Shown one piece after another: positions 37,335 to 62,419 of a DNA stretch of 64,000 nucleotides. The stretch is from Isurus oxyrinchus. Lineage: Eukaryota. A model generated the notes under the pieces. That model searched no databases and was not told the origin of the DNA. It saw only the letters and a program-made list of their open reading frames with translations. Numbering within the stretch: position 1 is the first letter of the stretch; every line of letters starts with the position of its first letter. Made by a program: the position numbers and the translations under genes. The DNA lies in NCBI GenBank assembly GCA_026770705.1, contig JANJGN010000150.1:1054001-1118000 (forward strand), given 5' to 3'.

Positions 37335-37665
37335 TCTGACAGTGCAGCACTCCCTCAGTACTGACCCTCTGACAGTGCAGCACTCCCTCAGTACTGACCC
37401 GCCGACAGTGCAGCATTCCCTCAGTACTGACCCTCTGACAGTGCAGCACTCCCTCAGTACTGTCCCTCCGACAGTGCAGCACTCCCTCAGTACTGTCCCT
37501 CCGACAGTGCAGCCCTCCCTCAGTACTGACTTTCTGATAGTGCTGTGCCCCCTCAATACTGTCCCTCTGACAGTGCAGCACTCCCTCAGTACTGACCCTC
37601 TGGCAGTGCAGCACTTCCTCAGTACTGACCCTCCAACAATTCTGACATCCCTCAGCACTCCCTCA
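37335..37665. repeat. 33-bp minisatellite
   Basis: About 10 units. Confidence 0.9.
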
Positions 37666-40352: not shown

Positions 40353-40398
40353 ATGGGAGAGGTCGGTCTGATATTGATCTTCATCAGCTTGCTGCAAG
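40353..40398 (+). CDS. Gene B signal peptide exon (coding part)
   Basis: aagATGG in good Kozak context; MGEVGLILIFISLLQ(G)|gtacaa, phase 1. The acceptor-like tttag at 40338 implies an upstream non-coding exon. Confidence 0.85.
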
Positions 40399-43300
40399 GT
40401 ACAAATTCATTACTGATCGGAACTCAGGGAATTGGATTCTTTCCTGGAGTGAGGAAGTGAACATTTAATTTTAGAGAACAGGGTTAGTGATCACACAGAG
40501 AGTGAGTGAATAGCGAGTCAGAGAATATAGCAAAAGAAAAAGACTCATACGGACTCGAAACGTCAACTCTGTTTCTCTCTCCACAGATGCTGTCAGACCT
40601 GCTGAGTTTTTCCAGCATTTTCTGTTTGTGCATCAGAGAGCTTGTTTCAATAGGAATGACAGTGCATTTATATAGCACCTTTAATGCAGTAAAACATCCT
40701 TATTGCGTCACAGGATTCCCCCACAAGGGGTAACATCCCCTCAGCATCCACCCTGTCAAACCCCCCACCACCTCAGAATCTTATATGTTTCAATAAGATC
40801 ACCTCTCATTCTTCTAAACTCCAATGGATACAGGGCCCAACCTGCTCAACATTTCCTCATAAGACAAACCCCCTTCATCCCAGGAATCAGCCCAGTGAAC
40901 CTCCTCTGAACTGCCTCCAATGCAGAGTCTATCCCTCCCTAAGTAAGGAGACCAGAACTGTACACACTGCTCCTGATACAATCTCACCAACGCCCTGTAC
41001 ATTTGTAGCAAGACTCCCCTCCTTTTATACTCCATCCCTTTGCAATAAAGGCCAACATTCCACTTGCCTTCCTCATTCCGTGCTGTTCCTGAATGCTGAC
41101 TTTCTGTGATTCATGTACAAGGACACCCAGATCCCTCTGTGTCACATTCTGTAGACTCTCTCCATTGAAGTAATATACTGCTTTTTGATGTCCTGTCCCC
41201 TCCCTTGTTGCCTTTCAGGAGTGACGTCAGAGGGATGGTCTATGAAGGCGCTGCCTCAGAGGGCCATCAGCAGCTCTTGTGTGGTTATTCCGTGTAGCTT
41301 TGACTTTCCTTCCCACTCTTACACAGCACTGCACGGAGCTTGGTATAAATATTGGTATAGATGGAAATATACCATCACATACACCAAAGATCCCAATTAT
41401 GGGATGGCCACATTCGTGGGACGTGCTAAAATAATCGGCGACTTGGAAGGGAAGAATTGTTCGGTGAGGATTGACAGTCTCAGAGCTGAAGATAGTGATG
41501 TGTATTACTTTTATGTGGATGTGGAGGGCTACACAGATCACACTTTTACAGAACCAGTCCAACTCCAGGTTCTTGGTAAGTCCCAGTTCCTTTCACACTC
41601 AGTCTCTCAGCACAAGGGGGTCATGTTCTCATCTCAGAGCCAGGCAGTCATGGGTTCAATTCCTGCTCCAGGAGATGTCAGAACAAAGTCCAGGATGTGA
41701 TCAGGCACAGTACTGAGGGAGTGCCGCACTGTCAGAGGGTCAGTATTGAGGGAGTGCTGCAGTGTCAAAGGATCAGTACTGAGGGAGTGCTGCACTGTCA
41801 GAGGTCAGTGAAAAGGGAGTGCTGCACTGTCAGAAGGTCAGTACTGAGGGAGTGCTGCAGTGTCGTATGGTCAGTACTGAGGGAGTGCTGCACTGTCAGA
41901 GGGTCAGTACTGAGGGAGTACTGCACTGTCAGAGGGTCAGTACCGAGGGGGTGCTGCACTGTTAGAGTGTCAATACTGAGGGGCTGCTGCACATTCAGAG
42001 AGTCAGTACTGATGGGGTGCTGCACTGTTGGAGGGTCAGTACTGAGGGAATGCTGCACTGTCAGAGGGTCAGTACTGAGGGAGTGCTGCACTGTCGAAGG
42101 GTAAGTACTGATGGAGTGCTGCACTGTCAGAAGATCAGTACTGAGTGAGTGCTGCACTGTCAGATGGTCAGTACTGAGGGAGTGCTGCACTGTCAGAAGG
42201 TCAGTACTGAGGGGGTGCCGCACAGTTAGAGTGTCAATACTGAGGGGGTGCTGCACTTTCAGAGAATCAGTACTGATGGGGTGCTGCACTGTTGGAGGGT
42301 CAGTACTGAGGGAGTGCTGCACTGTCAGAGGGTCAGTACTGAGGGAGTGCTGCACTGTCGAAGGGTCAGTACTGAGGGAGTGCTGCACTGTCAGAAGGTC
42401 AGTACTGAGGGAGTGCTGCATTGTCAGAAGGTCAGTACTGAGGGAGTGCTGCACTGTCGGATGGTCAGTACTGAGGGAGTGCTGCACTGTCAGAGGGTCA
42501 GTACTGAGGGAGTGCTGCACTGTCAGAGGGTCTGTACTGAGGTGGTGCTGCACTGTTAGAGTGTCAATACTGAGGGGGTGCTGCACTTTCAGAGAGTCAG
42601 TACTGATGGGGTGCTGCACTGTCGGAGGGTCAGTACTGAGGGAGTGCTGCACTGTCAGAGGGTCAGTACTGAGGGAGTACTGCACTATCAGAGTGTCAGT
42701 ACTGAGGGAGTGCTGCAGTGTCGGAGTGTCAGTACTGAGGGAGTTCTGCATGGTTGGGGGTCAGTGCTGCGTGAGTGCTCCACAGTCTGAGGATCATTGG
42801 CAAAGCAGTGGGTAGTGATAAGGAGAGATTGGGCACGAGAGGGGCAGGATCAGGGTGAGGTGGGCAGACACATAGCTGATGCATTTTAGTGCAGTGAAGT
42901 GTGAAGTGACGCACTTTGTCAGGATGAATACAGAAAGATATTGGACACGAACAATTTGGACAAGTGTTGGACAATAGAGACCTGGGTGTCTCTCTGCACA
43001 CATTCTGAAAAATTAAAGGGCAACTTGTTGAGGGGATTAAGAAAGCAAATATTTTCCTTGTGTTAACAGACTGAGGAACCGAGTTAAAAGCAAAGAGATC
43101 ATGCAGGAACTTTATAAATCACTGGTTAGAACTCAGCTGGAATATTGTTCAGAACGCTGGGCCTCCACACTTCAGGAAAGATGTAAGAGCTTCAGAAAGG
43201 GTGTCAAAGAGGACAAAACAGTAAAAACTGGGACATAAGAGTCCTGCTCGAAACTGGTCTTGTATAGCTTAACATATAACACCAGTAAAACTGGGAAATA

Positions 43301-46300
43301 AGAGTCCTGGTCCAAACTGGTCTTGTATAGCTTCATATAGAACACCAGTAAAACTGGGAAATAAGAGTCCTGGTCTGAGCTGTTTTTTTGCTTCTGGGTG
43401 GAGAGGAGATTGAGCAGAATGGGTCCAGGGATGAGGGATTTTAGCTACAAGGTTGGGTTGGAGAAGCTGGGGTTGTTCTCCTTGGAGCAAAGGAGATTGA
43501 GGGGGGATCTGATCGAGGTGTACAAGATGATGATGGGTTTAGATAAGGTAGACAAAGAGAAGCTGTTGCCATTAGCTGATGGGACAAGGACTGGGGGACA
43601 CAGATTGAAGGTTGTGGGAAGAGGGGGGATGTGAGGAGGAACTTTTTTACACAGCGAGTGGTAATGAGCTGGAAATCGCTGCCTACGAGGATGGTGGAAG
43701 TGGAGACGATGGGCGATTTCAAAATGAAATTGGACGGACACTTGAGGGAAATAAATTCGCAGGGATACGGGGATAGAGGAGGGGGAATGGGACTGACTGG
43801 ATTGGTCTACAGAGTGACAGCATGGACTCGATGGGCTGAATGGCCTCCTTCTGTGTTCTGAGTGTCTGTGACCCTATTGAAAAATCAAAGGACAAATCAA
43901 ATCTCTTTTCTACTTGTCTGTTAACATCTGGAACTTTCTATTACAGATGTTCCAGATAAGCCAGTTATTGTGCTCCTGAAGGATTTACAGGAGGGGACTC
44001 CTGCACATATCATCTGTAAATGCCTCGACACCTGCCCTGATAACCACCCCAATCTAACCTGGAGTGAATTGCTGACTTCCTCGGTCAGCACCATCACAGA
44101 GAACGGTGGTGAGGTTTCTGCTCTACTGACCTTTAACCCTTCGTTCAAGCATCATGGACGAACTCTCCGCTGTACCTGTGACTACCCTCAAACCAGCCAT
44201 CGAGTGGTCAACTCAGTTACTCTGAGTGTAAAGTGTAAGTATTGGTTAGAACATCCTGCTTGTGATGGAGGGGGAGTCAGTCTCCTATTAAATCAGGCAT
44301 TGGAGAAGGTGCAAGTGGGATTGACATGGATGATCTCCGAACTGAGAGGTTATAACTAACAGGAAAGACTGAACAAGCTGGTATTCTTGTCTCTAGAAAA
44401 GAGAAGGCTGAGGGGGTGACCTGATCGAGGTCCTTAAAATGATGAAACGGTTTCGATAGGGTAGATGTAGAGAAGATGTTTCCACTTGTTGGAGCGAGGC
44501 CAGAACTAGGATCCATCAATATAAGATAATCATTAATAAATCCAGTGGGGAATTCAGGAGAAACTTCTTTACCCAGAGAGTGGGGAGAATGTGGAAGTCG
44601 CTCCCACAGGGAGTGGTAAAGGTGAATAGTATCGATGTATTTAAGGGATAAACACATGAGGGAGAAAGTAAGAAAAGGTTATGGGGATGGGGTGAGATAG
44701 CCACTTGTAGACTCGCTGTAATTCTGTGTAACATCATCTGCTGGTGAGGAACACAGTGCAGTTTGTACAGGTGCTAGTGTTGGAGCTGTATCCAGTCCAT
44801 GATTCAAAACAGACCCTATCCCAATCTGGATGTTACACCTCATCAGTTCACTCTTTTTTTCATTCTTTTCTGGGATGTGGCCATTACTGGCTGGGGCCAG
44901 CATTTATCACCCATTCCTAATTGTCCCTTTGGAAGGTGGTGGTGAGCTGACTTCTGGGACTGCTGCACAGCATGTAGTGAAGGTGCACCAAAAGTGCTTC
45001 CTGGAGAGTGTTCTAGGATTTTGACCCAGAAACAATGAAGTAACAGTGAAATCGTTCCAAGTCAGGATGGTGTGTGGCTTGGAGGGGAACTTACAGGTGG
45101 TGATGTTCCCATGTATCTGCTGCCCTTGTCCTTATAGGTTTCAGAGGTCATGCGTTGGAAGGTGCTGTCTTAAGAGCCTTGGTGAGTTGCTGCAGTGCAT
45201 CTTGTAGATGGTATACATTGCTGATAATGTGCGTCATTGGTGGAGGGAGTGAATGTTGAAGATGGTGGTTGGGATGCCGATCAATTGGGCTTTGTCCTGG
45301 ATGGTGTCGAGTTTCTTGGGTGTGTTGGAGCAGCACTCATCCTGGCAACTGGAGAGAATTCCATCACACTCCTGACTTTAGCTCAGTGTTTAATGTGTTG
45401 ATAATTTTGTATTTGAAAGATTCTCCTCACAACACGTCTGTCAGGCTGACACGGGAAAAAGGAAAGATGATTTCTCTAAGTTGTTCCAGTGACGGGAATC
45501 CAGCAGTCCACAATTTCACCTGGTTTAAGATCTCCCAAGGCAAGGCGACAAATCTGGTGCTCACTGGTCAAACTATTACAGTTCCTTATGGATTCGATGA
45601 GGAAATCTCCTACTACTGTGAAGCAACAAGTATCCTGGGCAGTTCCCAGTCTCTGCCCATTAAAATTCCCACTGAATGTGAGTACTTTTTTTATTCATAC
45701 ATGCGATGAAGGTGTCACTGGCTAGACCAACATTTATTGCCCATCCCAAATTATACTGGAACAGAGAGGCTTAGTGGGCCATTTCAGAGGATATTGAGGA
45801 GTCAACCACGTTGCTGTGGGTCTGGAGTCACATGTAAGGCCAGACCAGGTAAGGACAGCAGATTTACCTCCCTAAAGGACATTAGTGAACCAGATGGGGT
45901 TTTAACGACAATTGGCAATGTTTTCATGGTCAACAATAGACTTTCAATTACAGATTCTCATTGAATTGGTTGGAAAGTGGACATTTGAACACTATGGCCA
46001 CAATTTGTCCACAATTATCTGTTGCCAGCCAATCAGCACCCTCTTCTCATGCAGTATAATTTGTTCTCCCTTTGAGATTTGGTAATCTTGCAATTCTGTC
46101 CTGATGAGTGAAAGATGAAAAGCTTTGACAGAATGTCTCCTTTTTCACCAATGCTCAGGTTCTGTCCTGCCAAGTGACTGTAAACATCGTCTTCTGTAAA
46201 TCAAAATCCTGAATACACTCGTAAATGACTAACATATCATTCCTGGTACACAAATCAGAGAAAGTTAGAATGCAGGTGCAGCATGTGGTTAGGAAGGCAA

Positions 46301-49300
46301 ATGAAACATTGGTGTTTATTGCAAGGGAGATTGAGTGTAAAAGTAGAGACGCATGTTACAACTGTACAGGCTATTGGTGAGACTGCATCACGAGTACTGT
46401 GTACAGTCCTGGCTTCTGACATAGAAAAGATGGGCCGAATGCGCAGCTGTAGACTATCTTTAATTCTGTGTAACATTATCTGCTGGTGGGTAATACAGTG
46501 CAGTTTGTACGTGTGCTAGTGTTGGAGCTGTATGCAGTCCATGATTATATAAAGAGACTATTCAAATCTAGAGTTTAAACCACATGAGTTTGCCCATATT
46601 TAATTCATTTGCTGATATGGGCAACATTTATTGCCCATCCCTAATTACCCCTTGAGACATTGTCTTGAACCGCTTCACTACATGTGCTGTAGGTACACCC
46701 ACAGCAATGTTAGGCAGGGAGTTCCAGGATTTTGTCCCAGTGATAGTGAAGGAACAGCAATAGATTTCCAAGTCAAGGTGGTGTGTGGATTGGAGGAGAA
46801 CTTGCAGGTGGTGGTGTTCCCATGAGTCTGCTGCCCTTGTCCTTCTAGATGTTAGAGGTCACAGGTTTGGAAGGTGCTGCTTAAGGAGCCTTGGTGAGCA
46901 GTTGCAGTGCATCTTGTAGATGGTACACACTGCTGCTACTGTGCGTCGGTGGTGGAGGGAGTGAATGATGAAGTTGATGGGTGGGATGCCAGTCAAGTGG
47001 GCTGCTTTGTCCTGGATGGTGTCGAGCTTCCTGAGTGTTGTTGGAGCTGCACTCATCCCGGCAACTGGAGAGAGTTCCATCACACTCCTGACTTTAGCTC
47101 AGTGGTTAATGTGTTGATAATTTTGGATTTGAAAGCATCTCCTCACAACATGTCTGTCAGGCTGACACTGGAAAAAGGAAAGAATATTTGAAGAGCTTTG
47201 ATAGAATGTCTCCTTTCACACCAATGCTCAGGTTCTGTGCTGCCAAGTGACTGTAAACATCGTCTTCTGTAAATCAGAATCCTGAAAACTCTCTCCAATG
47301 ACTAACACATCATTCCTGGTACACGAATCATAGAAAGTTAGTATGCAGGTGCAGCAAGTGGTTAGGAAGGCAAATGGAACGTTGGTGTTTATTGCAAGGG
47401 AGCTCGCGTGTAAAAGTAGGGACACATGTAACAACTGTACAGGCTCTTGGTGAGACTGCATCACGAGTACTGTGTACAGTCTTGGCTTCTGACATAGAAA
47501 AGATGTGCCGAATGTGCAGCTGTAGACTACCTGTAATTCTGTGTAACATTACCTGCTGGTGATGAATACAGTGCAGTTTGTACATGTGCTAGTGTTGGAG
47601 CTGTATCCAGTCCATGATTATATAAAGAGACTATTCAAATCTAGACTTTAAACCTCATGAGTTTGCCCATATTTAGTTCATTCACAGGATGTGGGAGCTG
47701 CTGATATGGGCGACATTAATTGCCCATCCCTAATTACCCCTTGTCCTGACCTGCTGCAGTCCACATGCTGTACGTATATCCACAGTGCTGTTAGGGAGGG
47801 AGTTCCAGGATTTTGACCCAGCGATAGTGAAGGAACGGCCGATATATTTCCAATTCAAGATGGTGAGAGGCTTGGTGGGGAACTTGCAGGTGGCGTTGTT
47901 CCCATTTTCCTGCTGCCCTTGTACTTCTAGGTGTTAGGGATTGGAAGGTGCTGCTCAAGGAGCCTAGGTGTGCTGTTACATTGCATCTTGTAGACGGTAC
48001 ACACTGCTACCACTGTGCATTCATGGTGGAGGGAGTGAATGTTGAAGATGGTGGGTGGGATGCCGTTCAAGTGGGCTGCTTTGTCCTGGATGGTGTCCAG
48101 CTTCATGAGTGTTGCAGGAGCTGCACTCATCCCGGCAAATGGAGAGTGTTCCATCACACTCCTGACTTTAGCTCAGTGGTTAATGTGTTGATAATTTTGT
48201 ATTTGAAAGATTCTCCTCACAATACGTCTGTCAGGCTGACACGGGAAAAAGGAAAGGTGATTTCTCTAAGTTGTTCCAGTGACGGGAATCCAGCAGTCCA
48301 CAATTTCACCTGGTTTAAGATCTCCCAAGGAAAGGTGACGAAACTGGTGCTCGCTGGTCAAACTATTACAGTTCCTTATGGATTCGATGAGGAAATCTCC
48401 TACTACTGTGAAGCAACAAGTATCCTGGGCAGTTCCCAGTCTCTGCCCATTAGAATTCCCACTGAATGTGAGTACTTTTTTTATTCGTTCATGGGATGAA
48501 GATCTCACTAGCTAGACCAACATTTATTGCCCATCCCAAATTACCCTGGAACTGAATGGCTTGCTGGGCCATTTCAGAGGTCATTGAAGAGTCAACCACA
48601 TCTCTGTGGGTCTGGACCTGCATGCAGGCCAGACCAGGTAAGGACGGCAGATTTCCCTCCCTAAAGGACATTAGTGACCCTGATGGGTTTTTAATGACAA
48701 TCGGTAATGTTTTCATGGTCATCGTTAGAAATTCAATTCCAGGTCCTAATTGAATTGGTTGGCAAGTGGACATTTGACACTTTATCCACAATTTGCCCTC
48801 AATTATCTGCTTTCCAGGCAATCAGCACCACCTCCTCATGCAATCTCGATTGTTGTTCCCTTTGAGATTTGGTATTCTTGCAATTCTGTCCTGATGAGTG
48901 AAAAATGAAAAGCTTTGACAGAATGTCTCCTTTCTCACCAACGCTCAAATTTTTTACTGCCAAGTGACTATAAATATCTTCTTCTGTAAATTCTCCTGAA
49001 TGCTCTCCCAATTGACTAATATATAATTTCTGGTACATGAAACATAGAAGGTTCGTATGCAGGTGCAGCAAGTGTTTAGGAAGGCAAATGGAATGTTGGT
49101 GTTTATTGCAAGGGATATTAAGTAAAAGTATTAGGGATGTAGGGTGGAGGTGTACAGGTTCTTTTTGAGACTGCATCAGGAGTACTGTGTATAGTCTTGG
49201 CTTCTGACATAGAAAAGATGGGCTGAATGCGCAGTTGTAGACTACCTGTAATACTGTGTAACATTATCTGCTGGTGAGGAATACAGTGCAGTTTGTACTT

Positions 49301-52300
49301 GTGCTAGTGTTGGAGCTGTATCCAGTCCATGATTATATAAAGAGACTATTCAAATCTAGATTTTAAACCTCATGAGTTTGCCCATATTTAATTCATTTGA
49401 TGATATGGGCAACATTTATTAGCCATCCTTAATTACCCCATGAGCCACTGTATTCAACTGCTGCAGTCCATGTGCTGTAGGTACACCCACAGCAATGTTA
49501 GGGAGGGAGTTCCAGGATTTTGACCCAGTGACAGTGAAGGAATGGCGATAGATTTCCAAGTCAGGATGGTGAGTGGCTTGCAGGGGATCTTGCAGGTGGC
49601 ATTGTTCCTACCTATCTGCTCCCCTTGTCCTACTTGATGTTAGGGTTTGGAAGGTGCTGTTCAAGGAGCCTTGGTGAGCTGTTGCAGTGCATCTTGTAGA
49701 TGGTACACACTGCTGCCACTGTGCACCAGGGAGTGAATGTTGACTATGGTGGGTGGGGTACCGTTCAAGTGGGATGCTTTGTCCTGGATGGTGTCGAGCT
49801 TCCTGAGTGTTGCTGGAGCCGCACTCATCCCGGCAACTGGAGAGTGTTCCATCACACTCCTGACTTTAGCTCAGTGGTTAATGTGTTGATAATTTTGGAT
49901 TTGAAAGATTCTCCTCATAACACGTCTGTCAGGATGACACTGGAAAAAAGGAAAGATGATTTCTCTAAGTTGTTCCAGTGACGGGAATCCACCAATCCAC
50001 AATTTCACCTGGTTTAAGAGCTCCCAAGGAAAAGTGATGAATTTGGTGCTCGCTGGTCAAACTATTACAGTTCCTTCTGGATTTGATGAGGAAATCTCCT
50101 ACTACTGTGAAGCAACAAGTATCCTGGGCAGTTCCCAGTCTCTGCCCATTAGAACTCCCACAGAATGTGAGTAATTTTTTTATTCGTTCATGGGATGGAG
50201 GTGTCACTGACTAGACCAACATTTATTGCCCATCCCAAGTTACCCTGGAACAGAGTGGCTTGGTGGGCCATTTCAGAGGGTATTGAAGAATCAACCACAT
50301 TGCTGCAGTCACAGGTACGCCAGAGCAGGTAAGGACAGCAGATTTCCCTCCCTAAAGGACATTAGTGACCAAGATGGGGTTTTAATGACAATCAGCACTG
50401 TTTTCATGGTCATCATTAGACTTTCAATTCCAGATTCTAATTGAATTGGTTGGCAAGTGGACATTTGACCACTTTGGCCACAATTGGTCCACAATTATCT
50501 GTTGCCAGCTAATCAGCACCCTCTTCTCATGCAGTATCAATTGTTGTTTCCTTTGAGATTTGGTATTCTGGCAATTCTGTCCTGATGAGTGAAAGATGAA
50601 AAGCTTTGACAGAATGTCTCCTTTCTCACCAATGCTCAGGTTCTGTGCTGCCAAGTGATTGTAAACATCATCTTCTGTAAATCAGAATCCTGAATACTCT
50701 CTCCAATGACTAACACATCATTCCTGGTACAAGAATCATAGAAAGTTAGTATGCAGGTGCAGCAAGTGGTTAGGAAGGCAAATGGAACGTTGCTGTTTAT
50801 TGTAAGGGAGCTCGCGTGTAAAAGTAGGGACGCATGTTACAACTGTACAGGCTCTGGGTGAGTCTGCATCACGAGTACTGTGTACAGTCTTTGATTCTGA
50901 CATAGAAAAGATGGGCCAAATGTGCAGCTGAAGGCTACCTGTAATACTGGGTAATGTTATCTGCTGGTGAGGAATACAGTGCAGTTTCTACTTGTGCTAG
51001 TGTTGGAGCTGTATCCAGTCCATGATTATATAAAGAGACTATTCAAATCTCGATTTTACACCTCATGAGTTTGCCCATATTTAATTCATTCACAGGATGT
51101 GGGAGCTGCTGATATGGGTAACATTTATTGCCTATCCTTAATTACCCCTTGTCCTGACCTGCTGCAGTCCATGTGCTGTACGTATACCCACAGTGCTGTT
51201 AGGGAAGGGGTTCCAGGATTTTGACCCAGCGATAGTGAAGGAACGGCCGATACATTTCCAATTCAGGATGGTGAGAGGCTTGGCGGGGAACTTGCAGGTG
51301 GCATTGTTCCCATTTTTCTGCTGCCCTTGTTCTTCTGGTATTAAGGAATGGAAGGTGCTGTTCAAGGAGCCTTGGGGAGCTGTTGCAGTGCATCTTGTAG
51401 ATGGTACACACTGGACATTCATGGTGGAGAGAGTGAATGTTGTAGATTGTGGGTGGGATGACGTTCAAGTGGGCTGTTTGTCCTGGATGGTGTCGAGCTT
51501 CCTGAGTGTTGCTGGAGCCGCACTCATCCAGGCAACTGGAGAGTGTTCCATCACACTCCTGACTTTAACTCAGTTATTAATGTGTTGATAATTTTGTATT
51601 TGAAAGATTCTCCTCACAACACGTCTGTCAGGATGACACTGGAAAAAGGAAAGATGATTTCTCTAAGTTGTTCCAGTGAAGGGAATGCAGTAGTCCACAA
51701 TTTCACCTGGTTTAAAATCTCACAAAGAAAAGTGACGAATCTGGCACTCGCTGGTCAAACTATTACAGTTCCTTATGGATTTGAAGAGCAAATCTCCTAC
51801 TACTGTGAAGCAACAAGCATCCTGGGCAGTTCCCAGTCTCTGCCCATTAGAATTCCCTCTGAATGTGAGTACTTTTCTTCATTTGTTCATGGGATGGAGG
51901 TGTCACTGGCTAGACCAACATTTATTGCCCATCCCAAATTACCCTGGAACTGAATGGCTTGCTGGGCCATTACAGAGTGTATTGAAGAGTCAACCACATC
52001 TCTGTGGGTCTGGACTTGCATGTAGGCCAGACCAGGTAAGGACAGCAAATTTCCCTCCCTAAAGAACATTAGTGACCCAGATAGGTTTTTAACGACAATT
52101 GGTAATGTTTTCATGGTCATCGTTAGAATGTCAATTCCAGATTCTCATTGAATTGGTTGGCAAGTGGGCATTTGACACTTTATCCACAATTTGTCCACAA
52201 TTATCTGCTTGCCAGCTAATCAGCACATTCTCCTCATGCAGTATCAATTGTTGTTCCCTTTCAGATTTGGTATTCTTGCAATTCTGATGAGTGAAAGATG

Positions 52301-55300
52301 AAAAGCTTTGACAGAATGTCTCCTTTCTCACCAATGCTCAGGTTCTGTGCTGCCAAGTGACTATAAACATCGTCTTCTGTAAATCAGAATCCTGAATACT
52401 CTCTCCAATGACTAACACATCATTCCTGGTACATGAATCATAGAAAGTTAGTATGCAGGTGCAGCAAGGTGTTAGGAAGGCAAATGGAACGTTGGTGTTT
52501 ATTGTAAGCAAGCTTGAGTGTAAAAGTAGGGATGCATGTTACAACTCTATAGGCTCTTGGTGAGACTGCATCAGGAGTACTGTGTACAGTCTTGGCTTCT
52601 GACATAGAAAAGATGGGCCGAATGCGCAGCTGTAGACTACTTGTAATTCTGTGTAACATTATCTGCAGGTGAGGAATACAGTGCAGTCTGTACATGTGCT
52701 AGTGTTGGATCTGTATCCAGTCCATAATTATATAAAGAGACTATTCAATTCTAGATTTTAAACCACATGAGTTTGCCCATATTAAATTCATTTGCTGATA
52801 TGGGCAACATTTATTGCCCATCCCTAATCACTCCATGTGCTGTAGGTACACCCACAGCAATGTTAGGCAGGGAGTTCCAGGATTATGACCCAGTGACAGT
52901 GAAGGAAATGACGATAGATTTCCAACTCAGGATGGTGTGTGGATTGGAGGGGAACTTGCAGGTGGTTGTGTTCCCATGAACAGATGCCCTTGTCCTTCTA
53001 GATGTTAGAGGTGATAGGTTTGGAAGGTGCTTTTCAAGGAGCCTTGGTGAGCTGTTGCAGTGCATCTTGTAGATGGTACACACTGCTGCTACTGTGCATT
53101 CAAGGTGGAGGGAGTGAATGTTGAAGATGGTGGGTGGGATGCCAATCAAGTGGGCTGCTTTGTCCTGGATGGTGTCGAGCTTCATGAGTGTTGTTGGAGC
53201 TGCACTCATCCCGGCAACTGGAGAGTGTTCCATCACACTCCTGACTTTAGCTCATTGGTTAATGTATTGATAATTTTGTATTTGAAAGATTCTCCTCGCA
53301 ATACGTCTGTCAGGATGACATGGGAAAAAGGAAAGATGATTTCTCTCAGTTGCTCCAGTGACGGGAATCCAGCAGTCCACAATTTCACCTGGTTTAAGAT
53401 CTCCCAAGGAAAGGTCATTAATCTGACACTCACTGGTCAAACTATTATGGTTCCTGATGGAGTCGATGAGGAAATCTCCTACTACTGTGAAGCAACAAGT
53501 ATCCTGGGCAGTTCCAAGTCTCTGCCCATTAGAATTCCCACAGAATGTGAGTAATTTTTTTATTTGTTCATGGGATGAAGGTCTCACTGGCGAGACCAAC
53601 ATTTATTGCCCATCCCAAATTACCCTGGAACAGAGTAGCTTGCTGTCCATTTCAGAGGGTTTTGAGGAATCAACCTCTTTGCTGTGGGTCTGGAGTCACA
53701 TGTACACCAGACCAGGTAAGGATGGCAGATTTCCCCCCCTAAAGGACATTAGTGACCCAGATGGGGTTTTAGCGACAATCGGCAATGTTTCCATGGTCAA
53801 AGTTAGACTTTCAATTCCAGATTCTAATTGAATTGGTTGGCAAGTGGACATTTGACACTTGGGCCACAATTTGTCCACAATTATCTGCTTGCCAGCCAAT
53901 CAGCACATTCTTCTCATGCAGTATTGTTGTTCCCTTTGAGATTTGGTATTCTTGCAATTCTGTCCTGATGAGTGAAAGATGAAAAGCTTTGACAGAATGT
54001 CTCCTTTCACACCAATACTCAGTGCCGGAAAAGGATGAATGATCTCCTCCGTTCCACCAGCGTAAGTCACCCTTTTCATCACTCCTAACTCACACACTCA
54101 CAAACACATCACACACCCACAGGGCCCTCACTCACTGCCAGCGCAAGAGATATCACCATTCACTCTCTCACTCACACCGTCATTGTCCACATCCCATCCG
54201 TAGGACCACTCACCACCCACACAGGTCAGGCATACTTATCATCTGGCCTGGCAGGCATCCTGATACACTCTCCCCATCTCTATCCATGCAGGACAAACTG
54301 GCTCACAACAGGAGGGGAAGGTCACAGACAGGTGGAGAGATGTCGGAGATCAAAGCTCTGACAGAATTGGAAAACAGAGTCATCCAGCTGGCCGGCAATG
54401 ACCGGGATCGGTCCTGTGCTGACAGTGAGTTCAGCGCTGCTTTCCCAAGTGAGGATCCAGAAGTGCAACATCCATCAAACAACCATGCTGTGAGTGATGT
54501 GTCCTCTTTCACAGGCCACTGCCATGCACTAATTAGCTCCCAATGCTTTCACAGACACATCTGGGAAGCAGCAGACAGAGTCCACGACCCAGAACCTCCA
54601 AGCAAGCTCCGAAGAAACCTCTGAAGAGGAATCTGAAGGCACCCTCCCTGAACTCCCCTCACAGCGCTCATCCTCACCCTCCATCAGCGCAGAGACACGC
54701 ACCTCGGTGGGACCTAGCTTTAGAGTAGCCTCTGGTGAGCACATCGCACTGTTTGATTCACAGCAGGCTGAGGCAGGGACCTACCAGGTCCCCGGCACTC
54801 GGAGGACTGCTGGAGGCCAGAACGTTGCTGAGTCCGAGTCGGATGATGAGCTTCTGACTCAGTAATGTCACAGTTGCTGGAGCTGCAAAGGCAAGCTGGG
54901 GAACATCAGGAAGGGATGTCCGCTGCACTCCTCAGATTGCAAGGCATGATGGAGGAGTCCGTCTGCCTTCAGGTTGAGGTGATAGTGCCAGCATGGCAAC
55001 GCACTGAGGTCAACACTGGCAGGATGACGGCCGCCATGGAGACCTTGGTCCAGGACGTTGCTCACGTACTGCTACACGGGTTTAACCCCATCTCTAATGT
55101 CATAGTTGGCCTCCTACAGTGTTCAGGTGAGAGGGATGCTGGGCAGCTCAATCTCACTCTACCTACACCCCATCTCTCATCCCCATTGATGTCCTCCTCA
55201 TCAGAGGAGACCTCCAGCTCCTCCATCTCCTCCTCAGCCAGCTCCTCTCCCAGTTGCAGTGCCTGGTTGTAAAGGGCGCAGCAGACGATGACGATGTGCG

Positions 55301-58300
55301 ATACCCTCTGCGGACTGTATTGCTGGGCTCCACTAGACTGGTCCAGGCACCGCAACCACATCTTCAGCATCCCGGGTCTGTGCTACCAAGTTACGAGTTG
55401 CTGCCTGAGCCTCATTATAGCGTCGCTCTGCTGCAGTCTGAGGCCTCTGCACGTGTGTCATCAGCCACAACCACTGCGGGTAGTCCTTGTCCCCAAGGAG
55501 CCAACCCTGCAGCCTCTGTGGACCCTGGAAAACTGCAGGGATCTGAGAGTGACTCAGGATGTAGGCTATGTGCGCACTCCCTGTAAACCGTGTGCATACC
55601 ACAGGATGTGTTGCTGCTGGTCACATACCAACTGCATATTCAATGAGTGGAAACCCTTGTGGTTGATGAAGTCCACTGGGTGTAGCGATGGAGAACTGAG
55701 CGCCACATGAGTGCGGTCAATCGTACCCTGCACCTATGGGAATCCCGAGATCAGGGCAAATCGAAAGGCCCTTGCATCCTGGCTGTCCGGGTCCCGGGCA
55801 AAATGCATAAAGTTGTTGCCATGGAGAAGATGCATCCGGGACCTCATGGATGTATTTGTGGGTGGAGAATTGTGATATCCCACAGAGGTCGCCTGTGGAG
55901 CCCTGAAAGGAGACACTGGCAGAGAAATTGAGCACCACGGTCACTGTCACAGGCACTGGCAGTGGATGCCCTCTATGTTCCCTTGGTACAGTAAGTGGCA
56001 GATGTGAGCCAACAGGTCCCTAGACATGCACAGACATCAGTGACGCTGGTTCTCAGTCATCTGCAGGAATGACAGGCGGTGTCTATAGACTCTGGGTGTC
56101 GCTAGGCGCTGACCAGTCACGGCTCACTGTCGCTCCTCGACAGCGTATGCGAGACCTCCACTGCCCCTTCTTCATGAGGTTGCTGTTCCTGCCTTTGTGC
56201 GGCCAGGAGCCTCAGTCACTCTCTCCTCCGTCTTCTACAGTCTCCATGGACCATCAGGCACACAGCTAGGTCACCAGGGTCCATCATCCCGACATGGCCC
56301 TCCTGCACCATGAAAAAGAGAGAGAGAGAGACTTGGTTATCGTGGCTGTACTTAGCACCTTTCCTGGCCCTGTGTGACTGCCCCTCAATGCTTCCCGGGA
56401 AGTGCTGGTCACCGCTTGGACGGCCAGAGATGAGTGCGCTGCATGGCTGCCCCCTCAACCCGTGACATGCGGGACACTGGTCCAAACCGAGATGCTGAGA
56501 GACCTGAGAGAGTTTTGTCTGTGGAAGTCAGAGGCTTGTAACATCAAAGCAGCTGTAAGCCTACACCTGTCTGCAAAGGAACCAAAGTGAAAGGAACCTC
56601 ATTTGGAATTTGTGAGGTTAAAATGCTTTGCCTGGTGTCTGCTTAAAGTCTATGGGTTGTCTTAGAGGAGATTAGTTTGGGAATTTGATAAAAAGTTTTG
56701 ATCGTTGTAACTTTTAGCCATGTGTCTATATTTAACTTGTTATAAGTTGGTAAATTTAGTTTGATATAAAAACCTCTAGAGAACCGGTGGTCTTATTCCT
56801 GAATTTTGAGCTGCATCTCAAACATTCCACTGGGAAATATAGGTTTTAACAGTTGTTTAAAGTTCCCCTCTGGGATTTTAAACCACAGCTTTTACCAACT
56901 GCTGTATTGTAACATCTATAAATGTTACATAGATTACATCGATAAATATTATATATAAATATTACAAAGATTACATCGATAAATATTACATATAAATATT
57001 AGATAGGTTATATGGAAATGCAAGAAGTTTATTCATAAATTGCTTAGAAATTCCTGAAACTCTCAACAGCCAATGAAGCAGTTTCGAAGTGAGCTCACTG
57101 TTGTATTGTTGGAAACGCAGCTACTGATTTGTGCACAGCAAGATTCCAACAATCAGCATTGTGATAATGAACTGATAATCGATTATTTTAGTGAGGTTAG
57201 TTGATTCATACAAAGAGATTACATTTAGGAGGTGGATCACTAATAACCTTTTAGGGAGGGAAACCTGTCTGGGTGTATATGTGACTCCAGTCTCAAACAC
57301 CAATGTAATTAACTCTGACCTGCCCTCTGAACTGGTCTCCCAGTTTGGGACAAACCAGTGGTTCAGGAGGAAGACCCCCCACCACCTTCTCAAGGGGAAA
57401 CTAGGGATGGACAATAAATGTCAGCATTGCCCGAGAATGAGTATTTAAACATTGAGTGAGTGTATCGCTTCTCGAGATACATCGGAGCATCATTCTAAAC
57501 CTGTAGTGCAGTAATTAATGGCTGTTTTTACAGGTAGAGACTGCAGTAAATGGACAGTAGGATTGCTCACGGCTGGGATCATGTTGAGTGTTTTCCTGGC
57601 TGGAATCTTCATCTTCATCTGTGTGAGAAAGTAAGTCTGAAGATTTAACTTGATTTTAATATAAACATTTGCTTCAATGTTCTTTCCTTAAGTCGGTGAT
57701 TGTTTCCCTTGGGATCAGCACCAGGTCCCTCTCGGTAAGTGGTCCCTGTGTCCACTCTGATCCGGAGAGAACCTTTCATTGTCCTGTATCCAGGTAAACA
57801 ATCACGAGACCCAGAGATTCCTCACTCTGCACGATTACTCCGGGATAAACATTTGCTTCAATGTTCTATCCTGAAGTCGGTGATTGTTTCCCTTGTGTTA
57901 AGCGCCAGATGCCTCTCCGTAACTGGTCTCTTTGTCCCTTATGATCCAGAGAGTGTTTTTCATTGCCCGTTATCCAGATGAATAATAATCAGTTGCTGTG
58001 ATCTGGAAGGTGCTGCCTGAAAGGGAGGTGGAAGCAGATTCAATAGGAACTTTCAAAAGGGGAATTGGATAAATACTTGAAGGGGCAAAATTTGAAGGGC
58101 TATGGGGGCAAGAGCAGGGGTGGAGGGGGGGTCAAAGATATGGCATGTTATTATAATGATATTATACCTTGGGCTTATTTACTGTACAAGACACAAAGCA
58201 CCAATCGCACACAGGGATTGGGTGAGAATGTTATGGGCTCATTTATCAAGAACAGTTATACATACGGATAAAGCTTGGAGGCATCAGAGCTGTGAGTGTG

Positions 58301-59747
58301 TGCTCTGCTCAAAGCAAAAGTGAAACTAAGATTGGATCACATGACACACTTCCATTATAGTGATGTCACGCTGATATCCCTTATTGGAACTAGAGACAGT
58401 CCAGTCATTGGTGTAAGGTTACAGTGGGCTTTGTGTCTGTGCTGCACTGACTCTCTGCTATATGATAACCACAGTGTGATATTGTGTTATTGCAGGAGAA
58501 AGACAGCGATGGAGGAGAGAGTTTCAGGGACCAGAGACATTGCATTGACCCCCAGTCCACTCTCTGTGAAGCACCAGGTACAGGAGCTGTTTACACTCAC
58601 TCCAAAGCTTCAACCCCAGTGTGTAGACAACACGTGTCCCAGATTCTCAGCCAGGTTACCCACTGACTTCTAACTGTGGAGTCAGCAATGGCTCAGTTTT
58701 TAGCATTGTCTCTTGCTCTCTCTCTCTCTCCCTCAGTCTCTCTTTCTCCAGAAACCTGAGCACAAAAATGCCGATACATCTGAGGTCAGCACTGGGGGAG
58801 AGCAACACAGAAGGAGAATCAGTACTGAGGGTGTGCTGCACCATTGGAGGGTCAGTAATGAGAGAGTGATGCATTGGAGAAGGCTCAGTACTGAGAGAGT
58901 GCTGCACTGTCAGAGGGTCAGTACTGAGAGACTGCTGCACTATCGGAGGGTCAGTACTGAGGGGGTGCTGCACTGTCGGAGGGTCAGAACTGAGGGAGTG
59001 CTGCACTGTCGGATGTTCAATACTGAGGGAGCGCCGCACTGTTGGAGGGTCCATATTGAAGGAATGCTGCCCTCTCGAAGGGGCAGTTCCAAGGGAGTGC
59101 CGCACTGTCAGGAGCCAGCACTGAGAGAACGTTGCATTGTTCAAAGTGCCATCTTGCAGAACAGTTGTGTAATGCTGACCATGTTTACCCTCTCAGGTGG
59201 GCATATAAGATCCAACATTATAGCAGTGACACACTTCAATAAAATTCCTTCATTGGCGTGAGGTGTTTTGGATGCCTGTGTTTGTGATGAATGGAGCACA
59301 AATCTCACGATCCAGATGGTAACTAGGACTTCCAGACTCAGGTGCGCAAGAGAGAGAGAGAGAGAGGGAAAGAGAGAGAGCGAAAAAAGGGTTAAACCCA
59401 CTGAGCCACGACTGACACTAACGAGGCTGCACAATAATTTAACCCTATCAGTGCCAGTAAATGATGTGAGGATGTCTTCTGTTTCCATTTCTCTGTAGGA
59501 TGAACAGAACATGCTGATTACTGAGCCCCGGGACACAACCAGAGACACAACTAGTGAGGGGCAGACCCCAGCTCCCCGGGGTCTCTCTGAAAGTCCAGTG
59601 GGAGGCGATGCTGGACATGGGAACCCCGACAAACCCGACGACCTTCTCTACGCCAACATCAACTTTTCAAAGCTGCCCAGCGGTGACAGGACTGTGCACA
59701 GGAGCGAGGACACGGAATACACACTGATTGGATTCCAGAAAAACTGA
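40353..59747 (+). CDS. Gene B: Siglec-family (CD22/MAG-like) inhibitory receptor, about 716 aa with 6 Ig domains if the defective repeat exons are skipped
   Basis: Exons of 46+357+288+4x258+97+82+249 nt give 717 codons including the stop: signal peptide, V, C2, repeats, TM, ITIM and ITSM-like motif. Confidence 0.82.
40730..41165 (-). mobile_element. CR1/L2-like LINE fragment
   Basis: MEYKRRGVLLQMYRALVRL..CVQFWSPY. Confidence 0.8.
41219..41575 (+). CDS. Gene B V-set Ig exon (Siglec-type, essential Arg replaced by Tyr)
   Basis: ttcag|..|gtaagt; GW..SSCVVIPCSFDFP..GRAKIIGDLEGKNCSVRIDSLRAEDSDVYYFYVD. Confidence 0.92.
41705..42770. repeat. 33-bp minisatellite, about 32 units with internal higher-order repetition
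   Basis: Visible; the variant block gttagagtgtcaatactgagggg recurs at about 41960, 42225 and 42555. Confidence 0.92.
43400..43860 (+). mobile_element. CR1/L2-like LINE 3' end
   Basis: LGLFSLEQRRLRGDLIEVYKMM..RTGGH..RRNFFTQRVV and an atgggctgaatggcctccttctg tail. Confidence 0.85.
43947..44234 (+). CDS. Gene B domain 2 (C2-set) exon
   Basis: ttacag|..|gtaagt; DVPDKPVI..CKCLDTCPDNHPNLTW..SALLTFNPSFKHHGRTLRCTCDYP. Confidence 0.9.
44290..44700 (+). mobile_element. CR1/L2-like LINE fragment
   Basis: agaaggctgagggggtgacctgatcgagg..aggagaaacttctttacccagagagt. Confidence 0.7.
45420..45677 (+). CDS. Gene B Ig repeat exon a
   Basis: 258 nt, phase 1-1; SPHNTSV..LSCSSDGNPAVHNFTWFK..YYCEATSILG (CD22/sialoadhesin-like C2). 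Confidence 0.88.
46093..46134 (+). ncRNA. Minimal type I hammerhead-ribozyme-like motif
   Basis: ATTCTGTC-CTGATGA-gtgaaagat-GAAA-AGCT-TT-GACAGAAT: 8-bp stem I, both core boxes and a palindromic stem III. Confidence 0.6.
47136..47187 (+). pseudogene. Gene B repeat b: truncated pseudo-exon
   Basis: Only the first ~50 nt of the exon remain, fused to downstream intron sequence; the donor is deleted. Confidence 0.85.
48210..48467 (+). CDS. Gene B Ig repeat exon c
   Basis: 258 nt, AG/GT intact, open frame. Confidence 0.88.
48883..48924 (+). ncRNA. Minimal hammerhead-like motif copy
   Basis: Same motif, with a gtgaaaaat stem II region. Confidence 0.58.
49908..50166 (+). pseudogene. Gene B repeat d: frameshifted exon (259 nt)
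   Basis: An A6 run instead of A5 at 49944-49949 leads to a stop at 49979-49981; this could be a homopolymer sequencing error. Confidence 0.65.
50574..50615 (+). ncRNA. Minimal hammerhead-like motif copy
   Basis: Same motif as 46093. Confidence 0.58.
51607..51864 (+). CDS. Gene B Ig repeat exon e
   Basis: 258 nt, AG/GT intact, open frame. Confidence 0.87.
53289..53546 (+). CDS. Gene B Ig repeat exon f
   Basis: 258 nt, AG/GT intact, open frame. Confidence 0.87.
53957..53998 (+). ncRNA. Minimal hammerhead-like motif copy
   Basis: Same motif as 46093. Confidence 0.58.
54025..56500. mobile_element. Decayed PIF/Harbinger DNA transposon (HARBI1-like DDE nuclease on -, Myb/SANT partner remnant on +)
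   Basis: Minus strand: GSAHIAYIL..GWLLGDKDYP..WLMT..AERRYNEAQAATRNLV and LKMWLRCLD..YSPQRVSHIVIVCCALYN. Plus strand: KLAHNRR..QTGG..LTELENRV. Both are frameshifted. Confidence 0.8.
56500..56914. mobile_element. Probable LTR 3' fragment
   Basis: AT-rich, loosely similar to 32500-32750, ends ..ttgtaaca. Confidence 0.35.
57534..57630 (+). CDS. Gene B transmembrane exon
   Basis: (C)[32 protein letters not shown]; 2 nt differences from the gene A exon. Confidence 0.9.
58496..58577 (+). CDS. Gene B cytoplasmic exon 1
   Basis: [27 protein letters not shown], phase 2-0. Confidence 0.82.
58785..59110. repeat. Degenerate 33-bp minisatellite
   Basis: Paralogous to 30500-30990 but more decayed. Confidence 0.8.
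59499..59747 (+). CDS. Gene B last coding exon with ITIM (LLYANI) and ITSM-like motif (TEYTLI)
   Basis: tgtag| open frame to tga; the tandem tyrosine motifs resemble those of CD33-related Siglecs. Confidence 0.9.
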   Translation, partial: DEQNMLITEPRDTTRDTTSEGQTPAPRGLSESPVGGDAGHGNPDKPDDLLYANINFSKLPSGDRTVHRSEDTEYTLIGFQKN

Positions 59748-60037
59748 GTGTGAAACAGGGAGCGGGGCTGTGGGGTGTGTGCAGCCAACATGGCCAAATA
59801 GTAATGAACAGAAATATGATGTTGCTCAATTTTTTTTATCAGTTCTGAGTGAGCTTTCTGAATGCTGCACCTTTTTCCATGCTGTAAAAGATTGTGAGAA
59901 GCTTATGAATTATGTATAATTTTACATCTGTTAATACAAGGTGAGGTGAGAGTGACTGCCTTTGACATCAAGGCTGCATTTGACCGAGTGTGGCATCTAG
60001 GAGCCCGAGTAAAACTGGAGTCAATGTGAATCAGGGG

Positions 60038-60950
60038 TGGTATGAAAATCCAATAACTTTCATAATATTTTTCTGGTTTGTTGTAAAGTAGGTTTATGGG
60101 TGTGAGTGTAGATGGGTCTGTCTGTGTGGTTTAATTACATCTGGAGTCAGGTAGACTATAAGCTTGAGATTATCAAAAGAAGCTAGGTGTAGAAATGTAC
60201 TGGAAATGTTGAAATGGAGGCTGTCTCAGCATGTAAGGTGTGAAGAGAATTTGCATTTTTAGATAAGTTAAGGGATTGTTTGGATTTCAAATGCACGCTG
60301 GTCTGTTTACAACTATCCTGATAAGCAAGGCTGAGGAGTGTTTTAATTTTTCCCAAAGTTTACTGACAATATTGGCAACATAAAAGTTATTATATTATTA
60401 GAAAGTTACAGTTCCAAAGACATATAAACAATCGAATTTACACATCAAAGAGGGAGAAACACATTTAAAGGAGAATGAAAGGCTATGTTGGGGGCCATGT
60501 AAGATCTAACAGGAGTGTGTGAAACAGGCTTGAAGAAGCCTCCAGGCATTTGTGCAAAAGTTTGTTATATTCAGTAAATAAAGTTGGAGAAACCCGTTTA
60601 GAATTCCAGTGTCAAGTGTGTGCTGTGCTAACTCGCTGGGTTTGTTTTTAATCTAAAATCTTATTTTGGACTGTTGCCTTAAACGGGGTATGTAACTGGG
60701 AGTCAGGTTAATTAGGAATGTTAGGATTTGTTTTAGTAGTAACTGCTGCCTTAGATACGTGCTTGAAATCTTTTATTTTGTCAATAAATATTTTAAATTA
60801 GTTTTTAAGATCTCTAGATGTCTTCATCGATTAATTTCTCCTGAATTCAGTACATGCATCTCGTAATAAATATAAATTGCAAAACTGTTGTGATAGCACA
60901 ATCAAGTTGCCATTGTGGATTTCGCACACATCATCTGCCATGTCATAAGG
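60038..60950. mobile_element. Probable solo LTR (paralog of 31838-32751)
   Basis: Same insertion point, tcagggg|tggta. Confidence 0.5.
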
Positions 60951-60959
60951 TGGGGGGGA

Positions 60960-62010
60960 AACACTCAGCTGGTTCGATTCGTACCTAGCACAAAGGTTGT
61001 GGTTGTTGGAGGTCATTCATCTCAGTTCCAGGACATCACCGCAGGAGTTGCTCAGTGTAGTGTCCTCGGCCCAACCATCTTCAGCTGCTTCATCAATGAC
61101 GTTCATTCTATCAGAAGGTCAGAATTATGGATGTTCGCTGATGATTGCACAATGTTTAGCACCATTCGTGACTCATCAGATACTGAAGCAGCCCATGTCC
61201 AAATGCAGCAAGACCTGGCCATTATCCAGGCTTGGCCTGACAAGTGGCAAGTAACTTTCATGCCACACAATTGCCAGGCAAAGACCATCTCCAACCAGAG
61301 AGAATCTATTAATTTCCCCTTGACATTCAATGGCATTACCATTGCTGAATCCCCCACTATCAACATTCTGGGGGTTACCATTGACCAGAAACTGAACTGG
61401 ACTAGCCATATAAATACTGTGGCCACAACACCAGGCCAGATGCTGGGAATCATGTGGTGAATAACTCACCTCCTGATTCCCCAAAGCCTGTCCACCATCT
61501 TCAAGGCACAGGTCAGGAGTGTGATGGAATACTCCCCACTTGCCTAGGTGGGTGCAGCTCTCACAACAGACAAGAAGCTCGACACCGTCCAGGACAAAGC
61601 ATCGCGTCTGATTGGCACCTCATCCACAAACATTCTCTCCCTCCACAACTGACGCACAGTGGCAGCAGTGTGTGTACCATCTACAAGATGCACCGCAGGG
61701 GCTCACCAACACTCCTTAGACGGCACCTTCCAAACACATGATCACTACCATCTCGAAGGACAAGGGCAGCAGACACATGGGAACACCACCACCTGGAAGT
61801 TCCCCTCCAAGTCACTCACCATCCTGACTTGGAAATATATCACCGTTCCTTCACTGTCGCTGGGTCAGAATCCTGCAACACCCTCCCAAACAGTTCTGTG
61901 GGTGTACATACACCACAGGGACTGCAGCAGCTCAAGAAGGCAGCTCACCCCCATATTCTCAAGGACAATTAGGGATGGGCAATAAATTCTGGCCTAGCCA
62001 GTGTCAGTGA
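60960..62010 (+). mobile_element. Decayed CR1-like LINE, RT region
   Basis: GVAQCSVLGPTIFSCFIND..MFADD..ILGVTIDQKLNWTSHI. Confidence 0.85.
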
Positions 62011-62419
62011 ATGAATACAAAAAAGAAGCAATTAAAATGCCCTGACATTTCTGTACATTTTTATCAAATTAAATACGTTCTCTAGTGAATAATTCCATTC
62101 TCCAAGGCACCACTTCCTGTAGTCACACGCCCTTCTGATTATTTAAATTCCTGTGTCATTGGTAATGGAACATTCCCATGTAAACATGTCACACTGTAAT
62201 TACAGCCTCCTGCCAGTGGTGGTGCTCTAGTGTCCTAGTTTTGCTTCTCAGAGACTGGAGGAGATCGATACGTTGTGTTTACAATATGAGTAACACTCAG
62301 GGGTGACCAGGGGGATTCTTTCGGCCAAGTTTATGATGTTGCTAAGATACAATGGCCCCATGGGATTTTTCCTACTGCGTTTACAAGGTTGAATTGAAGA
62401 GATTTTTGAAGTGTCTGGC

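Follow-up and report, generated by a model that had tools for sequence, protein, structure and literature searches.

The hammerhead motifs that lie in tandem in the introns of a shark siglec gene are identified by their sequence as the hammerhead-bearing 3' end of an abundant EN+ Penelope-like retroelement (PLE) family. The reading preferred here, to which a probability of roughly 0.85 is given, is that this element end likely arrived in one sense insertion, was likely copied together with an exon-intron unit of about 1.7 kb, and is predicted to keep little or no activity, in short a probable inert passenger from a class of element already known. On present evidence the case is an ordinary one, the truncated and CpG-decayed end of a known class of retroelement in a duplicated intron. 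The window is the whole 64,000-nt stretch of Isurus oxyrinchus DNA that was analysed, and all positions refer to it. The host gene is a shark siglec/CD22-like immune-receptor gene, with the following exons:

40353..40398, + strand: leader exon
41219..41575, + strand: V-set exon (Pfam V-set 7.5e-8, Ig_CD22 6e-5)
43947..44234, + strand: second Ig exon
45420..45677, + strand: Ig exon B1, repeated, 258 nt
48210..48467, + strand: Ig exon B2
49908..50166, + strand: Ig exon B3, 259 nt, with a frameshift in an A run
51607..51864, + strand: Ig exon B4
53289..53546, + strand: Ig exon B5
57534..57630, + strand: transmembrane exon
58496..58577, + strand: first cytoplasmic exon
59499..59747, + strand: last coding exon, end approximate, with two tyrosine motifs that we take to be ITIM-like

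The counterparts of exon B3 on contigs C121 and C557 are 258 nt long. Hammerhead cores were matched five times in the window, always on the + strand (46101, 48891, 50582, 52284 and 53965), against 0.02 matches expected by chance, and the motifs lie 408-417 nt behind the ends of the B exons (45677, 48467, 50166, 51864 and 53546). Together with one deleted unit, the copies are:

46093..46134, + strand: copy 1, minimal type-I hammerhead motif, full
47136..47255, + strand: deleted unit, in which a splice acceptor and the stub of an exon starting at 47136, lacking a donor, are fused to the 3' half of a motif (at about 47189) and the element tail
48883..48924, + strand: copy 2, full, its core match (48891) differing at one loop-2 position
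50574..50615, + strand: copy 3, full
52281..52317, + strand: copy 4, lacking 5 nt from the 5' strand of stem I
53957..53998, + strand: copy 5, full, in a unit that ends at about 54022

The motifs are thus real and stand where a sequence-only reading of this DNA had placed them, and since the host gene is on the + strand they lie in sense in its introns, as that reading had also held. In copy 1, C3 is at 46101, G10.1 and U11.1 are at 46108 and 46116, the palindrome AAGCTT occupies 46120-46125 and U17 is at 46126; standard numbering agrees with the proposal of a cut after 46126 (UUU). Stem I closes the CUGANGA and GAAA cores in the type-I manner. An Rfam scan at E<=10 returned seven weak matches, with no hammerhead family among them.

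A Penelope-like origin, which the sequence-only reading had suggested, is supported. Pattern search recovered at least 2,961 genomic copies of the family (a control pattern gave 0), and longer copies carry decayed reverse transcriptase (RT) and GIY-YIG-like frames upstream of the 3' end. The motif lies within the terminal repeat of such an element, of which the window holds these parts:

46022..46182, + strand: 5'-truncated Penelope-like 3' end (part of the pseudo-LTR plus tail), about 160 nt, about 80% identical to dispersed copies
~48806-48972, ~50502-50660, ~52204-52365 and ~53884-54022, + strand: counterparts of that element end
50445..50462, - strand: short piece of this element in inverted orientation, lying upstream of the forward one
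~45965-45982: unit-1 counterpart of the inverted piece, read from the sequence

The flanks of the insertion consist of other decayed repeats. Truncation at the 5' end with an adjacent inverted copy, a mark of EN+ PLEs, is found both in the window, through the 18-nt inverted piece, and at dispersed loci, where inverted partners accompany 11 of 18 family copies. An RT followed by a C-terminal GIY-YIG endonuclease (EN) occurs in longer dispersed copies, one match being below the cut-off, and is absent from the window; no CX2-5CxxC linker between RT and EN was seen by eye in the decayed fragments L034, L036 and L038. No intact open reading frame was seen in any of the 24 family loci examined, a protein search with the EN fragment gave 57 candidates with none at E<=0.001, and an NCBIfam search gave RT matches below threshold only.

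The perfect 8-bp stem I had been presented as part of the match to minimal hammerheads. It is present in window copies; as a family trait it is ruled out, since 53 of the 70 dispersed copies have a stem of 5 bp. Eight base pairs are therefore a local state, one C>A change away from the subfamily state seen in locus L100, and a stem I longer here than in the family is a point against a mere passenger. Compensatory change in the stems is seen across the family: both partners of the fifth stem I pair have changed in 24 of 46 rows. The score for compensatory change in the stem is 0.138 against 0.077 for shuffled rows, in an alignment whose core is fixed by the search pattern and for which slid controls reach 0.112.

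The copies in the window have lost two CpG sites of the family. Both decays, C11.1>U and C17>U, are carried by every one of 15 non-redundant units as T at each position, in accord with the earlier suggestion of CpG decay; the G10.1-C11.1 pair, whose CG is kept in intact family copies, is G-U in all 15. Across the genome both CpGs are intact in 97 of the 2,961 copies. Events may have run as follows: retrotransposition with 5' truncation would have placed the element end, with its short inverted piece, in sense behind a 258-nt Ig exon; CpG deamination would then have changed the G10.1-C11.1 pair to G-U and position 17 from C to U, ahead of the amplification of the unit; unequal crossing-over would have multiplied the exon-intron unit; and the motif would now be removed with the intron by splicing. 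That tandem duplication spread the motifs, as had been claimed, is supported and likely, and the units have insertion junctions in common.

The active element would cut as a dimer through its AAGCUU palindrome. With U17 the palindrome in window copies grows to 8 nt, so that two copies would prefer a duplex in which A14 pairs with the cleavage-site nucleotide. U17 is accordingly predicted to favour an inactive form, nearest-neighbour energies giving -13.9 kcal/mol for the active dimer fold and -20.5 kcal/mol for the A14-U17 duplex; the same calculation does not prefer the active fold for the intact family copy L100 either, which makes the folding argument weak. A single G10.1-C11.1 pair can stand in for helix II (PMC544870), a UUC>UUU change makes a poor substrate according to passages of PMC6908138, and a minimal hammerhead assayed in PMC4209133 gave nil cleavage as a monomer and only low cleavage as a dimer. 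Rates for G10.1-U11.1 or U17 were not found in passages of PMC1636495, PMC2837043 and PMC3138052. The motif probably cannot cut any more. One X1 contig, from a guessed-RNA run, spans the predicted cut; it may be DNA or another unit, and ends, strand and level are not readable from contigs of such runs.

What remains odd is that units differ less from one another in the core than in the intron around it. The core is fully intact in 13 of 15 units, and the AAGCTT palindrome (positions 15.2-16.2 and loop 3) in 14. At 16 core positions there are 2 variant alleles where non-CpG intron rates predict 7.7 (P=0.017), at the 11 strict positions 1 against 5.1 (P=0.039), and of 37 non-overlapping intron windows the 25-nt one over the core shows the least variation. 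Stem I lacks such conservation, with 9 variant alleles where 7.6 are expected; for the 42-mer as a whole the count is 14 against 19.6 (P=0.12). These tests leave out two motif deletions, and their expected rates do not include trinucleotide-context mutability.

Such a core could mean that the fossil was kept as a weak, dimer-dependent array of intronic ribozymes, whose copies 1.7 kb apart would pair through the palindrome and cut the pre-mRNA at a low rate, and in that way adjust exon skipping (and with it Ig-domain number) or transcript level. The low core variation, the sense orientation, the 8-bp stem I, the presence of the insertion junction in contigs of related organisms, and a spacing that resembles the ~3-kb tandem hammerheads of real PLEs reported in part of PMC4209133 all speak for this. 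It is nonetheless unlikely. In the 10 units beyond those first read, core P rises to 0.068, and variant alleles number 9 in stem I (5.7 expected) and 13 in the whole motif (14.8 expected); the two motif deletions fall outside the tests; in its C121 counterpart one unit shows an additional core change, at A9; no unit retains C11.1 or C17; and dispersed copies found through RT/EN DNA are themselves core-intact in 9 of the 28 rows that cover the core, about a third. The bolder version, a domesticated array in which neighbours cut across the repeated Ig exon and so set the Ig-domain number of the receptor, would account for the core being the part of the intron that varies least, and is a shade less probable again. 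The earlier suggestion that the motifs affect exon skipping or transcript stability is not supported: the decays are fixed, 9 of 15 units keep both core and 5-bp stem I while 6 are broken in one or the other, only half of the motif is left in a 16th, U17 is predicted to promote the inactive duplex, and a neighbouring gene amplified its own Ig exons with no hammerhead.

Mild constraint on the core from a non-catalytic cause, such as a purine-rich splicing-factor site or a local stem, would fit a conserved core beside an unconserved stem I, which catalysis needs; it is very improbable, given a borderline signal in the independent set (P=0.068) and rates from which trinucleotide context is missing. 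Least credible is that the hammerhead helped to drive the amplification, two cuts freeing an exon unit that circularised and was reverse transcribed by Penelope protein in the manner of a non-LTR retrozyme: where tandem B exons are separated by an internal intron, each intron checked has the insertion or a remnant, and 21 of 21 single-exon paralogues checked are without it (a count without L139 and L140, which have no exon anchor), so that the hammerhead coincides with amplification of this exon, which also tells against the passenger reading, and tandem units with one type-I hammerhead each do have a retrozyme layout (part of bioRxiv 10.64898/2026.07.22.740005), but the junction of the founding duplication is ~330 nt beyond the cut site, a circle would presumably need two hammerheads before the first duplication, the decays are older than the amplification, the units are 6-15% diverged with the arrays found sitting in siglec loci on C150, C121 and C557, and the neighbouring gene amplified its Ig exon at least 23 times in tandem without any hammerhead.

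The minimal hammerheads of metazoan PLE pseudo-LTRs, as described in sections of Cervera and de la Pena 2014 (PMC4209133), are alike in type-I topology, in CUGANGA and GAAA cores, in a stem I that is 4-5 bp in the family, in G10.1-C11.1 in intact copies, in a small palindromic helix III, and in a genomic load of thousands of truncated copies, most of them single, with some pairs on opposite strands. They differ in that stem II is 2 bp here against 7-8 bp in the Schistosoma families described there, with no extra nucleotide here between 9 and 10.1, and in that window copies have G10.1-U11.1 and U17 and owe their tandem layout to duplication of a host exon-intron unit rather than of the element. 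EN+ PLEs of the Penelope/Poseidon type, as set out in parts of Craig et al. 2021 (PMC8557442), share an RT with a GIY-YIG-like region C-terminal to it that has two Cys between the VVY and YVG motifs, a 3' hammerhead, strong 5' truncation, an adjacent inverted truncated copy and an optional tail, whereas the window holds only ~160 nt of the 3' end; the assignment to that clade is tentative, resting on the absence of the CX2-5CxxC linker from decayed fragments. Non-LTR retrozymes, in the portion of bioRxiv 10.64898/2026.07.22.740005 that describes them, are alike in tandem units, one type-I hammerhead each and PLE origin; a chondrichthyan is among the hosts reported there, and in Xenopus 42-44% of the copies overlap an intron. 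Their consensus is 51-972 bp, whereas the present unit, ~1.7 kb long, is host-gene sequence that includes a coding exon and splice sites, was found only in siglec loci and has its junction away from the cut site, so that it does not fit the retrozyme definition of a non-coding tandem repeat of less than 1 kb that moves as one.

One pre-mRNA would carry up to ten sense-strand copies, which gives the locus some modest worth as a natural experiment on whether host transcripts are cut in vivo by PLE hammerheads. The conserved intronic ribozymes of amniotes and the CPEB3 ribozyme are active. They resemble the present motif in being sense-strand and intronic with a possible effect on pre-mRNA processing (passages of PMC6765202), and differ in being conserved single loci, the motif here being decayed, in need of a dimer and without a conserved stem I. 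Host-transcript cutting by PLE hammerheads in vivo is left open in the relevant parts of PMC4209133 and PMC6765202. Were the weak core conservation real, a retroelement ribozyme would have been recruited to regulate an immune receptor.

Sequence context may account for asymmetry in the CpG decay. In a hand tally of the first 100 of the 2,961 genomic rows, site 11.1/12 is TG in 58, CA in 23, CG in 14 and TA in 5, and site 17/1.1 is TG in 47, CA in 39, CG in 12 and TA in 2. Selection is not needed for the TG over CA skew at 11.1/12 (58:23), because the context there is asymmetric (ACG/TCG) and the palindromic site 17/1.1 is near even (47:39).

The tandem hammerhead motifs are best read, with a probability of roughly 85%, as the decayed end of a Penelope-like element (PLE) that was passively copied with a siglec exon-intron unit and is likely inert; its 3′ end would have been carried along as that unit duplicated. 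The array described by the sequence-only reading was confirmed, with five core matches in the window, all on the forward strand, against 0.02 expected by chance, and with the motif lying 408–417 nt past the ends of five repeated exons. Both defective copies were also recovered: in one, 5 nt of stem I are missing, and in a sixth unit a deletion has fused an exon stub to the 3′ half of the motif. An Rfam scan of 44000–56000 at E ≤ 10 returned no hammerhead match. The repeated exon (B) codes for an Ig domain (Pfam Ig_3 at 1.4e-5) and matches, at 85–93% identity, proteins of Cetorhinus and Carcharodon annotated as CD22-like, sialoadhesin-like, MAG-like or siglec-13, the longest of which have about ten such repeats. 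A tblastn search with these proteins gave a complete forward-strand gene model, from leader to two cytoplasmic exons, which puts the motifs in introns and in sense orientation.

Exons of the host siglec-like gene (tblastn)
40353, + strand, leader exon
41219, + strand, V-set exon
43947, + strand, second Ig exon
between the second Ig and TM exons, + strand, five B exons
57534, + strand, TM exon
after the TM exon, + strand, two cytoplasmic exons

The exact window motif has 38 matches genome-wide, 18 dispersed and 20 in siglec arrays, and a relaxed pattern in which CpG states and the loop base are free has 2,961, with none in the control. The 18 dispersed copies share a common sequence with a variable 5′ start, extending to about 50–85 nt beyond the motif start, and 11 have an inverted partner nearby. 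Walking upstream (two DNA searches, best 40 candidates of each scored) revealed longer copies with decayed reading frames, which carry the RT motifs QIDGVAMGSPLGP and YVDD and then a region with VVY..C.C..YVG.TSQRLADRIKQH. Pfam RVT_1 matched these frames at E 0.003 and 0.03, both under cut-off, and by Atlas placement (0.96) the C-terminal piece falls among eukaryotic clusters in which 11–18% of members have GIY-YIG. Such frames and inverted partners support the Penelope-like origin first suggested from the motif itself. The family resembles EN+ PLEs, as excerpts of PMC8557442 describe them, in its longer copies with RT and C-terminal EN, and in its 3′ hammerhead, 5′ truncation and inverted copy. 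It may tentatively be assigned to Penelope/Poseidon, since no zinc-finger linker between RT and EN is visible in the decayed frames. Its remnants in the window are ~160 nt of the 3′ end (46022–46182 and the corresponding stretches, which share ~80% identity with dispersed copies) and an inverted piece of 18 nt.

CpG decay at 11.1 and 17, proposed from the window copies, holds across the family. In a hand tally of the first 100 of the 2,961 relaxed-pattern matches, site 11.1/12 was TG in 58, CA in 23, CG in 14 and TA in 5, site 17/1.1 was TG in 47, CA in 39, CG in 12 and TA in 2, and in loop 2, 96 rows had C and the other 4 had A; both CpGs are intact in 97 of all 2,961. This pattern indicates CpG decay on both strands, starting from an element that had G10.1–C11.1 and a UUC triplet. 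Decay at 11.1/12 is biased to TG in these 100 rows (58 vs 23 CA), so that G12 is kept, and at 17/1.1 is near even; the skew likely reflects a putative context-dependent mutation. The 8-bp stem I is present in the window copies as described but does not extend to the family, where stem I has 5 bp (first pair disregarded) in 53 of 70 distinct dispersed copies. Among 46 rows (48 supplied, CTGTC-selected loci excluded), the fifth pair covaries, with both sides changed in 24, and pairing fails at the three outermost positions of the 8-bp stem in 41, 25 and 30 rows. The longer stem is thus a local state, and from the covarying fifth pair and the 5-bp family stem we infer that the family was under hammerhead constraint while mobile.

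The non-redundant set of 15 units (5 in the window, 10 downstream) excludes five near-identical duplicates, the copies on contigs C121 and C557, the half-deleted unit and also the final exon, whose intron is unrelated. U11.1 and U17 occur in all 15, and both changes are therefore older than the amplification; the units diverge by 6–15% (mean 10.8%). The repeated intron regains homology to the intron before the first B exon ~330 nt beyond the cut site, and contigs of related organisms span the insertion's left junction, so the insertion is common to these relatives.

A regulatory role in exon skipping or transcript stability, as the sequence-only reading proposed, draws on low core variation. 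Distinct variant alleles per column were compared with base-specific, non-CpG intron rates: in this test, which ignores unit tree, gene conversion and trinucleotide context, the 16 core positions hold 2 alleles vs 7.7 expected (P=0.017) and the strict core 1 vs 5.1 (P=0.039). The 25-nt core window is the least variable of 37 non-overlapping windows. Stem I holds 9 alleles vs 7.6 expected and the whole motif 14 vs 19.6 (P=0.12), counts that leave out deletions, two of which strike the motif. In the 10 downstream units, unseen by that reading, however, the core gives 2 vs 5.9 (P=0.068), stem I 9 vs 5.7 and the whole motif 13 vs 14.8, and we read the core deficit as a borderline signal. Core and 5-bp stem I are kept in only 9 of 15 units, and U11.1 and U17 are universal; the origin and decay of the motif are supported, the regulatory role is not, and we consider the predicted function very unlikely. 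Among dispersed copies found via RT/EN DNA (13 of 41 rows are misplaced partial matches; 28 cover the core), core variation is 7% vs 12% upstream, and 9 of the 28 have an intact core.

With regard to cleavage, a G10.1–U11.1 pair would be expected to harm the hammerhead. In ViennaRNA the monomer hammerhead fold scores −0.3 vs an MFE of −9.0 kcal/mol, stem II has a probability of 0.0005–0.03 in local context, and the active dimer is predicted at −13.9 vs −20.5 kcal/mol for a duplex pairing A14 with U17, which is not possible with C17. The folding argument is weak because the active fold is likewise not predicted to be favoured in the intact copy L100. PMC4209133 reports that a Schistosoma minimal hammerhead did not cleave as a monomer and showed low cleavage as a dimer, a review (PMC6765202) gives very low rates, dimers included, and in PMC6908138 the UUC>UUU change is taken to yield a poor substrate.

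A block of the window recurs ~27.7 kb downstream at 99.2–99.4% identity, and beyond it lies a longer gene, which has 11 B exons and carries the hammerhead in 10 introns; arrays on C121 and C557 are near-identical to those of C150, the window's contig. The repeated block (window ~46300–63540 vs loci L046–L047, C150, +27.7 kb) takes in much of the siglec gene and is either a very recent segmental duplication or an assembly artefact. Exon B3 (window 49908–50166; L046:3595–3853) is 259 nt in both C150 copies, with a frameshifting extra base in an A run, and 258 nt in its C121 and C557 counterparts; it is either an allele requiring exon skipping or an assembly error. The last B intron contains a decayed DNA transposon, which we take to be Harbinger-like (54023–~56600; DDE_Tnp_4 match at 55336–55620, − strand, E 7.5e-6), starting where the last hammerhead unit stops. 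Arrays of a 33-bp tandem repeat lie within and between the siglec genes.

Arrays of the 33-bp repeat (both orientations)
1192–1549
30502–30991
37335–37633
41708–42796
58819–59128

The neighbouring siglec-like gene (1658–28883; TM and tail exons ~29440–31540) has a tandem array of 23 or more near-identical Ig exons, with introns rich in (CA)n between them, and shows no match to the Penelope-like element. At least 21 more loci carry one B-type Ig exon, which shares about 93% identity with those of the window; in all 21 that were scored, the downstream intron is a different one and lacks the motif. These loci form a large siglec-like gene family, on contigs C52, C71, C121, C150, C189, C385, C646, C838 and C1130 of the Isurus oxyrinchus genome (G000).
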